Sequence record: PV946933.1
DNA from: a phage
Direction: 5' to 3' (one strand)
DNA length: 64,000 nt
Shown: in pieces, positions 8-19,867 of the stretch
Layout of the letters: every line of letters begins with the position of its first letter
How positions within the stretch are numbered: the first letter of the stretch is position 1
Notes under the pieces: generated by a model
Seen by the model: the letters and a program-made list of their open reading frames with translations, nothing else
Databases searched by the model: none
Told to the model about the DNA's origin: nothing
Position numbers and translations under genes: made by a program

Positions 8-370
8 ATGAAAGCATATCAAATTCTTGAAGGCACGCATAAAGGTACTATTTATTTTGAAGATGGTATTCAAGCACGAATTATTGTCTCTAAAACTTTT
101 AAAGAGGACTCTTTTGTAGACCCAGAAATTTTCTATGGTTTGCATGCCCGTGAAATTGAAATTGAAACACAGCCTACAGTTAAAATTGAGGGTGGTCAAC
201 ACCTGAACGTAAACGTTCTGCGTCGTGAAACTCTGGAAGATGCAGTTAAGCATCCGGAAAAATATCCGCAGCTGACCATCCGTGTATCCGGTTATGCAGT
301 TCGCTTTAACTCTCTGACTCCGGAACAGCAGCGCGACGTTATCGCTCGTACCTTTACTGAGAGTTTGTAA
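8..370 (+). CDS. GrcA/YfiD-like autonomous glycyl radical cofactor (5' end may lie upstream of window)
   Basis: C-terminal glycyl-radical motif RVSGYAVRF and a C-terminal ~60 aa that, as I recall it, matches enterobacterial GrcA; T4 is known to encode such a protein (Y06I). No in-frame stop between window start and the first ATG. Confidence 0.8.
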
Positions 371-5402: not shown

Positions 5403-5597
5403 ATGCTGACATGCGAACAGTTTGAAAAAATCATTAAATTAGTACGTGATGTTGAAATAGATTCATATCAATTAGCAGTTGAGCATTGTGAAGGATATTC
5501 ATACGAAGGTATAGCAGCAGCTAAAAGGGATTTGGATAAATCTAAAGCTAAGTTAGTTCAATATCTTGAAATGATTAGGTGGAATAATGAAAACTGA
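5403..5597 (+). CDS. hypothetical small helical protein (64 aa)
   Basis: ORF; similar composition to neighbours. Confidence 0.45.
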   Translation: MLTCEQFEKIIKLVRDVEIDSYQLAVEHCEGYSYEGIAAAKRDLDKSKAKLVQYLEMIRWNNEN

Positions 5598-5760
5598 AAA
5601 GCAGATGTTTTTAATGAAGCTAATTGAAGAATATGCTAATGCAGTTTCTGACTATGAGTGTTCTTCTCGGGAAAGAGGTACAGCTTTCGCAAAGGAAGAA
5701 ATGAAAATCATGGTTGATGCTCACACAAAGCTTCAGAATTTTATTGAAAACGTCATTTAA
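5587..5760 (+). CDS. hypothetical small protein (57 aa, not in ORF track)
   Basis: ATG 5587 with RBS AGGTGG; overlaps upstream stop. Confidence 0.35.
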   Translation: MKTEKQMFLMKLIEEYANAVSDYECSSRERGTAFAKEEMKIMVDAHTKLQNFIENVI

Positions 5761-5762
5761 TG

Positions 5763-5792
5763 GTTTACAAGTTGGCAAGGTTATGGTATAGT
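5763..5792 (+). promoter_or_regulatory. T4-type early promoter inside 9-bp inverted repeat
   Basis: GTTTACAAG-N-TATAGT; arms GTTGGCAAG 5771-5779 and CTTGCCAAC 5796-5804. Confidence 0.65.
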
Positions 5793-5820
5793 AATCTTGC
5801 CAACTGCCAAGGAGAAGAGA

Positions 5821-5925
5821 ATGAAAGTTTTGTTTGTTGTGTATGTGATGATTCAATATAATTACCCAATGTTTACTTATAATCTGGTGAACAACATTAT
5901 TGATATTATTCAAAGGAGTATGTAA
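5821..5925 (+). CDS. possible hydrophobic micro-ORF (34 aa)
   Basis: Follows early promoter 5763-5792 and RBS AAGGAGAAG. Confidence 0.3.
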   Translation: MKVLFVVYVMIQYNYPMFTYNLVNNIIDIIQRSM

Positions 5926-8489: not shown

Positions 8490-8514
8490 GGGAGCCTTCG
8501 GGCTCCCTTTTTTA
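8490..8514 (+). terminator. intrinsic terminator
   Basis: GGGAGCC-TTCG-GGCTCCC plus T6. Confidence 0.85.
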
Positions 8515-8520
8515 TTTCAA

Positions 8521-8604
8521 AAATTTTTCACAAAACGGTTTACAAGCATAAAGCTTTATGGTACTATACAACTATCAACTGATACAGATTTGGAGAATAA
8601 AATG
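8521..8604 (+). repeat. PeSL-like promoter-leader cassette, copy 1
   Basis: AAATTTTTCACAAAACGGTTTACA...TATGGTACTATACAACTATCAACTGATACAGATTTGGAGAATAAAATG; near-identical blocks at 34937-35025 and 63352-63436. Confidence 0.8.
8538..8567 (+). promoter_or_regulatory. T4-type early promoter (in PeSL copy 1)
   Basis: GTTTAC-N18-TACTAT. Confidence 0.7.
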
Positions 8605-17112: not shown

Positions 17113-17586
17113 ATGTTATTGACTGGCAAATTATACAAAGAAGAAAAACAAAAATTTTATAATGCACAAAACGGTAAATGCTTAATTTGCCAACGAGAAC
17201 TAAATCCTGATGTTCAAGCTAATCACCTTGACCATGACCATGAATTAAATGGACCGAAAGCTGGAAAGGTACGTGGGTTGCTTTGTAATCTCTGCAATGC
17301 TGCAGAAGGTCAAATGAAACATAAATTTAATCGTTCTGGTTTAAAGGGACAAGGTGTTGATTATCTTGAATGGTTAGAAAATTTACTTACTTATTTAAAA
17401 TCCGATTACACCCAAAATAATATTCACCCTAACTTTGTTGGAGATAAATCAAAGGAATTTTCTCGTTTGGGAAAAGAGGAAATGATGGCTGAGATGCTTC
17501 AAAGAGGATTTGAATATAATGAATCTGACACCAAAACACAATTAATAGCTTCATTTAAGAAGCAGCTTAGAAAGAGTTTAAAATGA
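17113..17586 (+). CDS. 49: endonuclease VII (Holliday junction resolvase)
   Basis: 157 aa; zinc-binding cysteines (CLICQ...CNLC) and HNH-like His-x-Asp core, matching T4 gp49 length. Confidence 0.88.
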   Translation: MLLTGKLYKEEKQKFYNAQNGKCLICQRELNPDVQANHLDHDHELNGPKAGKVRGLLCNLCNAAEGQMKHKFNRSGLKGQGVDYLEWLENLLTYLKSDYTQNNIHPNFVGDKSKEFSRLGKEEMMAEMLQRGFEYNESDTKTQLIASFKKQLRKSLK

Positions 17587-19400
17587 CAATTGAAAAAGAA
17601 ATTGAAGGATTGATTCATAAAACTAATAAAGACCTTTTAAACGAGAATGCTAATAAAGATTCTCGTGTTTTTCCAACTCAACGGGACCTTATGGCTGGTA
17701 TTGTGTCTAAACACATTGCCAAAAATATGGTCCCGTCTTTTATTATGAAAGCGCATGAAAGCGGAATTATCCATTTCCACGATATTGATTATTCCCCTGC
17801 TCTTCCATTTACTAATTGTTGTTTAGTAGATTTAAAAGGAATGCTTGAGAACGGATTTAAGCTCGGTAATGCACAGATTGAAACTCCTAAATCAATCGGC
17901 GTTGCTACTGCAATTATGGCACAAATTACTGCGCAGGTTGCTTCTCATCAATATGGTGGAACGACTTTTGCGAATGTAGATAAAGTACTTTCTCCTTATG
18001 TTAAACGCACCTATGCAAAACATATTGAGGATGCAGAAAAATGGCAAATCGCTGATGCGTTGAATTATGCCCAATCTAAAACAGAAAAAGACGTATACGA
18101 TGCATTCCAAGCTTATGAATATGAAGTAAATACTCTCTTTAGTTCAAACGGACAAACGCCTTTTGTAACAATTACATTTGGTACGGGAACTGACTGGACT
18201 GAACGGATGATTCAGAAAGCAATTCTGAAAAATCGTATTAAAGGTCTCGGTCGTGATGGGATAACTCCTATTTTCCCTAAACTTGTTATGTTCGTTGAAG
18301 AAGGTGTTAATCTTTATAAAGACGATCCGAACTATGATATTAAGCAGCTTGCTCTAGAGTGTGCAAGCAAAAGAATGTATCCTGACATCATTTCGGCTAA
18401 GAACAATAAAGCTATCACAGGTTCATCTATTCCTGTTTCTCCAATGGGTTGCCGTAGTTTCTTGAGCGTATGGAAAGATTCGACTGGTAATGAAATTCTT
18501 GATGGACGTAATAATCTTGGCGTTGTAACACTGAATCTTCCTCGCATTGCGTTAGATTCTTATATTGGAACACAATTCAATGAACAGAAATTTGCCGAAT
18601 TGTTCAATGAACGAATGGATTTATGTTTTGAAGCATTGATGTGTAGAATAAGTTCCTTAAAAGGAGTTAAAGCGACTGTTGCTCCTATTCTTTATCAAGA
18701 AGGTGCATTCGGGGTTCGTCTTAAACCTGATGACGATATAATTGAGTTATTTAAAAACGGTAGAAGTTCAGTGTCCCTAGGATACATTGGTATTCACGAA
18801 TTGAATATTCTTGTCGGTCGTGATATTGGACAAGAAATTTTAACTAAAATGAATGCTCGTCTTAAGCAGTGGACTGAAAGAACCGGATTTGCTTTTAGTT
18901 TGTATTCTACTCCTGCTGAAAACCTGTGCTATCGCTTCTGTAAACTTGATACCGAAAAATATGGAAGTGTAAAGGATGTTACTGATAAAGGCTGGTACAC
19001 TAACAGTTTCCACGTTTCAGTAGAAGAAAATATTACTCCGTTTGAAAAGATTTCTCGCGAAGCCCCGTATCATTTCATTGCAACAGGTGGTCACATTTCT
19101 TATGTTGAACTTCCTGATATGAAAAATAACCTAAAAGGTCTTGAGGCTGTATGGGATTATGCTGCACAACATTTAGATTATTTTGGTGTTAATATGCCAG
19201 TAGATAAATGTTTTACATGCGGAAGTACCCATGAAATGACTCCTACTGAAAACGGATTTGTTTGTTCTATTTGTGGAGAAACTGATCCTAAAAAGATGAA
19301 CACCATAAGAAGAACTTGCGGTTATTTGGGAAATCCGAACGAGCGCGGATTTAATCTTGGCAAAAATAAAGAAATCATGCATAGGGTTAAACACCAATGA
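17583..19400 (+). CDS. nrdD: anaerobic ribonucleoside-triphosphate reductase, uninterrupted
   Basis: 605 aa; C-terminal zinc ribbon CFTCGS...CSICG and a C-terminal glycyl-radical region; continuous ORF with no intron. Confidence 0.92.
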   Translation: MTIEKEIEGLIHKTNKDLLNENANKDSRVFPTQRDLMAGIVSKHIAKNMVPSFIMKAHESGIIHFHDIDYSPALPFTNCCLVDLKGMLENGFKLGNAQIETPKSIGVATAIMAQITAQVASHQYGGTTFANVDKVLSPYVKRTYAKHIEDAEKWQIADALNYAQSKTEKDVYDAFQAYEYEVNTLFSSNGQTPFVTITFGTGTDWTERMIQKAILKNRIKGLGRDGITPIFPKLVMFVEEGVNLYKDDPNYDIKQLALECASKRMYPDIISAKNNKAITGSSIPVSPMGCRSFLSVWKDSTGNEILDGRNNLGVVTLNLPRIALDSYIGTQFNEQKFAELFNERMDLCFEALMCRISSLKGVKATVAPILYQEGAFGVRLKPDDDIIELFKNGRSSVSLGYIGIHELNILVGRDIGQEILTKMNARLKQWTERTGFAFSLYSTPAENLCYRFCKLDTEKYGSVKDVTDKGWYTNSFHVSVEENITPFEKISREAPYHFIATGGHISYVELPDMKNNLKGLEAVWDYAAQHLDYFGVNMPVDKCFTCGSTHEMTPTENGFVCSICGETDPKKMNTIRRTCGYLGNPNERGFNLGKNKEIMHRVKHQ

Positions 19401-19867
19401 ATTACGATAGATTTTATCCCTGCGATTTTGTAAATGGCCCTGGATGCAGGGTCGTTCTTTTCGTTACGGGGTGTTTGCATAAATGTGAAGGGTGTTATAA
19501 TAAATCAACATGGAATGCTAGAAATGGCGTTCCATTCACTGGTGAAACACTAGAACAATTAATTGAATGTTTGAATAATGATTATATAGAAGGATTAACT
19601 ATAACTGGAGGAGACCCTCTTTATCCTGATAACCGAGATGCTGTTCATTGCATTGTTCAAACGGTAAAAAATCTTTATCCAAATAAAAGCATTTGGTTGT
19701 GGACAGGGTACAAGTTTGAAGATATTAAACAACTAGAAATGCTTAAATATGTTGATGTTATTATTGATGGGAAGTATGAGAAAAATCTTCCGACCAAAAA
19801 GCTGTGGCGAGGTTCAGATAATCAGCGACTTTGGTCAAATACCGATGGGGTGTGGAAACATGATTAA
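19397..19867 (+). CDS. nrdG: anaerobic RNR activating enzyme (radical SAM)
   Basis: 156 aa; Cys-rich FeS region near N-terminus; ATGA overlap with nrdD. Confidence 0.88.
   Translation: MNYDRFYPCDFVNGPGCRVVLFVTGCLHKCEGCYNKSTWNARNGVPFTGETLEQLIECLNNDYIEGLTITGGDPLYPDNRDAVHCIVQTVKNLYPNKSIWLWTGYKFEDIKQLEMLKYVDVIIDGKYEKNLPTKKLWRGSDNQRLWSNTDGVWKHD

Follow-up and report, generated by a model that had tools for sequence, protein, structure and literature searches.

The grcA-like gene at the start of the window

The stretch of DNA analysed here (sequence record PV946933.1; 64,000 nucleotides (nt), hereafter the window) belongs to a Tequatrovirus, a T4-like phage; over its first 3 kb it shares 98.6% identity with Salmonella phage GRNsp7, and many coliphages match that part at about 98%. 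An open reading frame (ORF) close to its left end encodes a homologue of the bacterial autonomous glycyl-radical cofactor GrcA (YfiD), and it is the mixed origin of this gene with which this report is concerned; the 5' half belongs to the phage lineage, whilst nearly all of the 3' half is identical to a present-day allele of Escherichia coli grcA (Table 1).

The gene is the orthologue of T4 vs.6, the product of which is also known as Y06I. The comparison with the T4 homologue proposed in the initial annotation of this DNA gave 118 identical residues out of 120, the sole differences being T54P and R73H, at a nt identity of 97-98%. Downstream lie vs.5, vs.4, vs.3, regB, vs.1, vs and tk.4, in the order found in T4; the upstream neighbour, vs.7, falls outside the window and synteny was judged from the downstream side. 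As the initial annotation had read it, the protein ends with the glycyl-radical module of GrcA/YfiD: the Pfam domain Gly_radical (PF01228) was found at residues 60-101 (E = 2.2e-18), and the C-terminal 60 residues are those of E. coli GrcA, the RVSGYAV radical site included. With its 120 residues the product is also a small stand-alone protein, as expected for this family (about 14 kDa). Against the NCBIfam GrcA equivalog model TIGR04365 the product scored 154.6 bits (match to residues 20-120), below the cutoff of 170 because its N-terminal half is diverged, whereas E. coli GrcA scored 233.9 bits with the same model. The product is classed here as GrcA-like and as an orthologue of Y06I, and not as a strict GrcA equivalog (TIGR04365, IPR011140).

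Nolan et al. (2006) recorded only a Pfam match for this gene. The predicted radical residue, Gly95, is equivalent to Gly102 of GrcA and Gly734 of PflB according to the established motif of pyruvate formate-lyase (PFL) and GrcA (PMC8683613). That T4 Y06I, like E. coli YfiD/GrcA, acts as a spare part for oxygen-cleaved PFL, as the initial annotation had stated, is documented in PMC8683613, citing Wagner et al. (2001), and by orthology (98% identity to T4 Y06I) the same function may be expected of the ORF product. The host PFL-activating enzyme would turn Vs.6/Y06I into its radical form, which would then replace the C-terminal fragment of the cleaved lyase and presumably sustain the fermentative energy metabolism of the host during infection under microaerobic conditions. 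With the radical function assigned by orthology, the product would not differ at the level of protein function from either T4 Vs.6/Y06I or E. coli GrcA/YfiD, although over its phage N-terminal half it shares only about 37% of its residues with the latter.

Table 1. Features of the grcA-like gene (window coordinates)
Feature	Position	Strand	Remarks
vs.6/Y06I orthologue; gene for a 120-amino-acid GrcA-like autonomous glycyl-radical cofactor	8..370	+	ORF; its TAA stop shares bases with the start ATG of the following gene (TAATG)
Phage-lineage 5' half (codons 1-60); AT-rich and diverged, homologous to the N-terminal region of GrcA	8..187	+	GC content at third codon positions (GC3) 0.18; phage-type informative sites
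Recombination junction on the 5' side, where the conserved EGGQHLNV block begins	184..193	+	Between the last phage-type (gene nt 177) and the first host-type (gene nt 186) informative site
Host-derived tract of 170 nt encoding the glycyl-radical module	191..360	+	100% identical in pairwise alignment to the E. coli grcA allele that has GTA at gene nt 225
GGT codon of Gly95 in the RVSGYAV motif (residues 92-98), predicted glycyl-radical site	290..292	+	Computed position
Residual phage-type 3' end	361..370	+	GAG AGT TTG TAA against host GAA AGC CTG TAA; three synonymous differences

A host-derived tract within a phage gene

The initial annotation had placed a shift from AT-rich phage codons to E. 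coli-style codons near nt 190, and had taken the 5' half to be phage-derived and the 3' half to have been acquired or refreshed from host grcA by recombination. This reading is borne out in each of its parts. BLASTN matched window positions 186-370 to grcA at 97.8% in 5,426 of 5,426 complete E. coli genomes, and the exact 170-nt allele is common in the species (at least 99% identity in 3,009 of 5,432 records, 100% matches included); identities of 97.8-100% to the host gene are far above the 72-85% found to the homologues in other phage genera. The similarity between phage and host gene stops at the stop codon. In the 5' half, identity to host grcA is about 50% at the nt level, the encoded region sharing 37% of its amino acids with the GrcA N-terminal region over 41 residues (E = 5e-7), whereas the corresponding nt identities to phage copies are 90% (Mosigvirus), 76% (Karamvirus) and 74% (Jiaodavirus). 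No place covering at least 80% of the ORF was found in the 5,426 E. coli genomes, the phage-type 5' half being left unmatched.

Composition along the gene is likewise far from uniform, as the initial annotation had supposed. GC content is 0.32 over nt 1-120 and climbs to 0.52 over nt 271-360, and GC3 reaches 0.44 in the tract, a value attained by 0.08% of 1,206 windows of 57 codons taken from the window's other ORFs (phage background 0.243±0.063). All five leucine codons of the tract are CTG and all three proline codons CCG, which make up 10% and 16%, respectively, of phage usage. When only codons for the same residue are compared, 56 of the 57 in the tract are identical to those of E. coli, as against 40-58% in phage homologues without a host tract, namely those of Slopek-, Pseudoteven-, Karam-, Krisch-, Tequinta-, Epseptima- and Biquartavirus (binomial P = 1.6e-12). 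A triplet informative-site test with host grcA and an unconverted Karamvirus copy as parents places the change sharply: up to gene nt 177 there are 65 phage-type and 6 host-type sites, and from gene nt 186 onwards 42 host-type sites and a single phage-type one (Fisher p = 1.6e-23, uncorrected for the approximately 6,500 partitions examined).

As the C-terminal 60 residues are almost invariant as protein across all the phage and host copies compared, and as both halves of the gene are homologous to GrcA, it could be argued that the whole of grcA was captured once, after which the 5' half diverged quickly and the 3' half was frozen by purifying selection. Selection on the protein, however, does not hold synonymous sites, and in unconverted modules only the 40-58% of codons cited above agree with the host, as against 56 of 57 here; moreover, the 5' half is common to genera whose 3' modules have different host affinities, and the last three codons are phage-type. 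Contradicted above all by the contrast at synonymous sites, a single capture followed by differential decay is very improbable, and chance and protein-level constraint are excluded as the source of the identity. An artefact (contamination with host reads, or a chimeric assembly) or a convergent optimisation of codons for high expression deserves less credence still. The codons of the tract are indeed typical of highly expressed E. coli genes (CTG, CGT, CCG), but the identity extends to non-optimal host codons (CAA, GTA, AAG, CAT, TAT, TTT), the tract is present at 95% identity or more in about 645 independently sequenced records of the Tequatrovirus and Mosigvirus type, including several T4 isolates and RB phages, and Klebsiella phages carry synonymous choices specific to Klebsiella (see below); these observations contradict both proposals.

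The same genome carries nrdD (17583-19400) and nrdG (19397-19867), both found as the initial annotation had stated. These genes have host homologues, and window positions 371-25370, within which they lie, gave no megablast match in the E. coli genomes besides one of 52 nt in an intergenic region. That stretch (8505-8556) matches one E. coli genome at 96% (strain BE104, in two places) and none of 5,425 others; it holds a GC hairpin and a T-run followed by promoter-like GTTTACA...TACTATAC, and the match may reflect an insert of engineered or laboratory origin in this one strain.

Direction and nature of the transfer

The transfer went from host to phage. The GC3 of host grcA is uniform (0.43 in both halves) and its two halves diverge congruently within the Enterobacteriaceae (0.92 and 0.89 between E. 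coli and Citrobacter, 0.88 and 0.84 between E. coli and K. pneumoniae), so that the tract is an outlier in GC3 and codon usage only in the phage; the phage-type 5' half, in addition, is matched by none of the 5,426 E. coli genomes searched. Identity alone carries no direction, and it might be proposed instead that E. coli and Klebsiella received the 3' part of grcA from phages. Nothing specific was found in favour of such a transfer, though, and with a host gene that is compositionally uniform, and both halves of which follow the host phylogeny, it is rejected as extremely improbable.

The event is bounded on both sides. Since the last three codons are of the phage type, the 3' crossover lies inside the gene; in Mosigvirus these codons are GAG AGT CTA, which are also those of the unconverted Slopekvirus and Pseudotevenvirus copies. 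Unconverted full-length homologues are present in Karam-, Slopek-, Pseudoteven- and Krischvirus, and in copies outside Tequatrovirus and Mosigvirus the longest exact blocks shared with host genes measure 20-44 nt. Between Tequatrovirus and Karamvirus, the identity of same-residue codons falls from 0.71 in the 5' half to 0.47 in the module, as would be expected if the module had been replaced. These comparisons point to gene conversion into a resident homologue and not to de novo capture, and the 3' half is better described as refreshed than as acquired, because the phage already owned a full-length, diverged homologue of grcA. It is thus with considerable confidence that we regard the tract as arising from homologous (homeologous) gene conversion of a short patch, with host grcA as donor, an already present phage homologue as recipient and the limits set by the glycyl-radical module.

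A second event in Klebsiella phages

The exact identity to host alleles, a parallel tract in Klebsiella phages and an age of the tract below that of the split between phage genera all go beyond the initial annotation. The parallel tract is found in Jiaodavirus, copies of which join a phage-type 5' half with a GC3 of 0.23 to a module with a GC3 of 0.59. This module is 96.0% identical to that of K. pneumoniae grcA, 92% to that of K. aerogenes and 87.9% to that of E. coli, and between GAA GGC GGT and GTT ATC its codons are those of K. pneumoniae (51 of 52 and 49 of 52). It also holds two Klebsiella-specific residues (LLDAVE, not LEDAVK), the E. coli and K. pneumoniae modules differing in only two residues. 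The 5' junction has the same position as in the E. coli-type event, whilst the last eight codons are phage-type, which puts the 3' junction about 27 nt before the stop codon as compared with about 10 nt in the latter. A K. pneumoniae-type tract (96-97% identity) with a different 3' junction is evidence of an independent event, and at least two such conversions have therefore taken place. Identity of at least 90% to the K. pneumoniae module was found in 134 records of the phage collection, and the high-identity matches sampled were phages of Klebsiella and Raoultella.

Three peculiarities of the records used should be mentioned. The K. pneumoniae grcA sequence was taken from CP125156.1, a 5.37-Mb chromosome which is filed in the plasmid collection under the label 'plasmid unnamed2'. 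In K. aerogenes NCTC10006 (LR134122.1) the annotation gives grcA as truncated; the cause is one inserted nt in an A-run, probably an assembly error. The vs.6 gene of Klebsiella phage ValerieMcCarty01 (301-663 of the fetched stretch) contains several N bases, which lower its apparent identity to K. pneumoniae grcA.

Age of the tract and sharing of host alleles

Between Tequatrovirus and Mosigvirus the tract is 97-100% identical, and exactly 100% in one of the three pairs compared, whereas identity is 85-90% over the 5' half and 70-75% over the downstream gene. In one such pair, same-residue codons agreed at 43 of 55 positions over the 5' half, as compared with 56 of 57 over the tract (Fisher p = 0.00085). 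An island of identity inside diverged flanks means that the tract is much younger than the split between the two genera; this leaves either a separate conversion in each genus or a very local movement of the tract between them.

E. coli grcA is itself polymorphic within the tract, with GTA or GTT at gene nt 225 and CGT or CGC at nt 240, and phage copies show the same variants. The GTA allele is matched at 100% by nine phage records, among them the window and five other named phages, and the GTT allele by no fewer than 60 phage genomes, to which several T4 isolates, RB14, RB51 and a Mosigvirus copy (L098) belong; a further phage copy (L093) combines GTT with CGC, as does E. coli ECONIH6, and has two private changes besides. 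The counts per allele derive from BLAST identity bands, and a scan of IMG/VR gave six dereplicated Tequatrovirus/Mosigvirus copies. The sharing of host variants suggests repeated exchange, without amounting to proof of it.

In the T4 reference genome (NC_000866; vs.6 at 5558-5920 of the fetched stretch) the tract carries CGT>CAT (Arg73His). As the E. coli GTT allele is matched at 100% by other T4 records (T4T, KJ477684-6, MT984581, OL964735 and others), this change is either a strain-specific mutation or a sequencing difference.

A different history for the E. coli-type tract would be a single conversion from host to phage, followed by its spread through Tequatrovirus and Mosigvirus by recombination between phages in co-infected cells, with no ongoing conversion by the host. 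T-even phages recombine freely among themselves, the two genera agree in the 5' junction and, in essence, in the 3' junction, and the variants seen within the tract of phage copies mostly resemble ordinary point changes, largely toward A/T. Exchange between phages, on the other hand, would normally bring flanking sequence along, whereas the island of identity coincides exactly with the host-homologous tract between flanks of 70-90% identity; three segregating E. coli alleles (GTA, GTT, and GTT with CGC) are matched by phage copies; and the Klebsiella event shows that the process is able to recur. A single event with later spread is thus rather unlikely, though it deserves to be kept in mind.

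Distribution of grcA-like genes in other phages

A 2026 paper names grcA as a core marker of the Straboviridae (PMC12845203). In Dhakavirus JS98 and Gaprivervirus VR7, two T-even phages of E. coli, vs.6 is lacking between vs.5 (or its equivalent) and vs.7, and no glycyl-radical motif was found in the fetched regions; vs.6 is thus an accessory gene in the Tevenvirinae. No recent host tract was found in the T5-like and Aeromonas-phage copies examined. The T5-like phages (Demerecviridae; Tequintavirus APCEc03, at 320-688 of the fetched stretch, and Epseptimavirus S133, at 315-683) encode a GrcA-like protein of 122 residues with a more PflB-like C-terminus (…NALTREQQNDVISRTFTQAM); over the N-terminal half its alignment to the T-even copies is poor, and its module is 72-73% identical to E. 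coli grcA, a level which speaks against a recent host tract.

Several IMG/VR contigs carry unusual copies. IMGVR_UViG_2706794630_000006, a 19-kb contig of the viral collection, has a full-length grcA of the host type (MITGIQITKA…) with a module 91% identical to that of Yersinia artesiana, and has the look of host DNA, or of DNA flanking a prophage, and not of a phage copy. In IMGVR_UViG_2700989062_000001, a Karamvirus-like copy stops three codons early (…RTFT*, 117 residues) and has lost the last residues of the module. T4-like contigs from human-associated metagenomes contain GrcA-like genes for 130-137 residues, the N-terminal halves of which are nearer to bacterial GrcA (…SIWLIEDNKARCLVAKE…YEYREVEI…); within our panel, the host genes nearest to their modules reach 79-84% identity and are mostly from Pasteurellaceae such as Haemophilus parainfluenzae. 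The true hosts lie outside the panel, and a host-matched tract in these contigs is therefore conceivable.

Proposed mechanism

T-even infection fragments the host DNA, and these phages have a highly active recombination-dependent replication (UvsX, UvsY, gp46/47, gp32); in T4 genetics, markers are routinely rescued from plasmids that contain cytosine. Against this background, the following course of events may be envisaged. An ancestral T-even phage already possessed a full-length, diverged and AT-rich grcA homologue. During an infection, host grcA DNA would have served as donor or template and approximately 170 nt of the phage copy would have been replaced, the limits of the patch being set by the sole region similar enough in nt sequence for pairing, that is, the glycyl-radical module from the EGGQHLNV block to a few codons before the stop. 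The most likely route would be copy-choice or synthesis-dependent strand annealing (SDSA), in which a phage 3' end would be extended on host grcA through the homologous block before switching back to its phage template; either would spare the phage from taking in unmodified host strands. The enzymes would presumably be those of the phage recombination-replication machinery (UvsX/UvsY/gp46-47), acting on fragments of host DNA. Once in place, the host-identical tract, with its 170 nt of perfect homology, should ease further conversion and might in this manner keep the phage and host copies alike.

Several points weigh against this account. Recombination between T4 and host grcA is here deduced from sequence comparison. 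T-even phages degrade cytosine-containing host DNA, which should restrict any exchange. The ancestral phage module probably shared only perfect blocks of 14-29 nt with host grcA, and with blocks so short the first conversion must have been a rare event. Searching the phage collection with the grcA modules of Salmonella enterica and Enterobacter asburiae gave no copy at 90% identity or more, and no recent host tract was found in the Karam-, Slopek-, Pseudoteven- and Krischvirus copies; conversion is therefore not universal. As for the alleles, the site at nt 225 is four-fold degenerate and varies in other enterobacteria, so that the sharing of GTA and GTT could be homoplasy. Conversion is, then, real but sporadic.

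A more far-reaching proposal, which we put forward tentatively and with somewhat less than even confidence, is that the 3' module of vs.6 and host grcA behave as one shared gene pool. Conversion would be recurrent and would track the host species and perhaps its alleles, maybe favoured by matching to PFL and the PFL activase, and it would be self-reinforcing because each round restores perfect homology. If this is true, the locus is a natural and measurable reporter of recombination from host to lytic phage.

Implications

Phages of the T4 group, the textbook lytic phages, break down the chromosome of the host and carry modified DNA themselves, and the exchange of genes with the host is usually thought to be rare and ancient. 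A tract identical to present-day alleles, together with its Klebsiella parallel, instead indicates recent and repeated conversion from host to phage in this group; strictly lytic phages, too, exchange short pieces of genes with their hosts. The locus offers a testable system for the rate at which lytic phages copy host DNA and for the phage recombination functions required, and provides an example of how an auxiliary metabolic gene can be kept matched to the partner proteins of its host. No statement on the nt identity of vs.6 to host grcA, or on the Klebsiella parallel, was found in the literature consulted (PMC8683613, PMC1524935 and PMC12845203 included), although earlier notice is possible, for example in Wagner et al. 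(2001) or Miller et al. (2003).

There is also a practical side to this result, as the most conserved part of a phage marker is identical in sequence to bacterial chromosomal DNA, which matters for read classification, contamination filters, the design of primers for quantitative PCR (qPCR) and host prediction. Primers for qPCR have been published with the proposal of grcA as a Straboviridae marker (PMC12845203). The forward primer maps to window positions 60-81, in the phage-specific half, and the pair should therefore not amplify host grcA; the reverse primer (351-370), which differs from the window at two positions, covers both the last part of the host tract and the final, phage-type codons. 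An assay placed wholly in the conserved 3' part would amplify host grcA.

Comparison with known systems

Two known systems invite comparison. In T4 marker rescue and in the insertion/substitution vector systems, short homologous segments of intracellular cytosine-containing DNA are copied into the phage genome by the recombination machinery of T4. Marker rescue is engineered and relies on perfect, phage-derived homology, whereas in the vs.6 case the donor is a natural chromosome and the product has become fixed in natural phages.

The closer parallel is with the photosynthesis genes of cyanophages, in which Zeidner and colleagues reportedly described, in 2005, intragenic recombination between cyanophage and host. 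For psbA and psbD, an exchange of segments between host and phage copies has been documented along with a patchy %G+C (Sullivan et al., 2006; PMC1484495). As with psbA, vs.6 is a host-derived metabolic gene in T4-like lytic phages, its %G+C is patchy and the phage copies cluster by host; the features by which psbA-type exchange is recognised, namely supported breakpoints, a compositional patchiness matching donor and recipient, and a pre-existing homologue in the recipient, were found here as well. The differences are, however, considerable. Here there is a single, sharply bounded tract of 150-170 nt which is 100% identical to extant host alleles, and it occurs in the classic enterobacterial T-even phages, which have modified DNA and degrade that of the host. 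The direction is also clear, two host species having each been donor to their own phage genus, whereas the psbA signals are statistical, older and reported for both directions. The function of the gene was already known and the process resembles the exchange of psbA in cyanophages; what vs.6 adds is a very clean example of it in the best-studied lineage of lytic phages.

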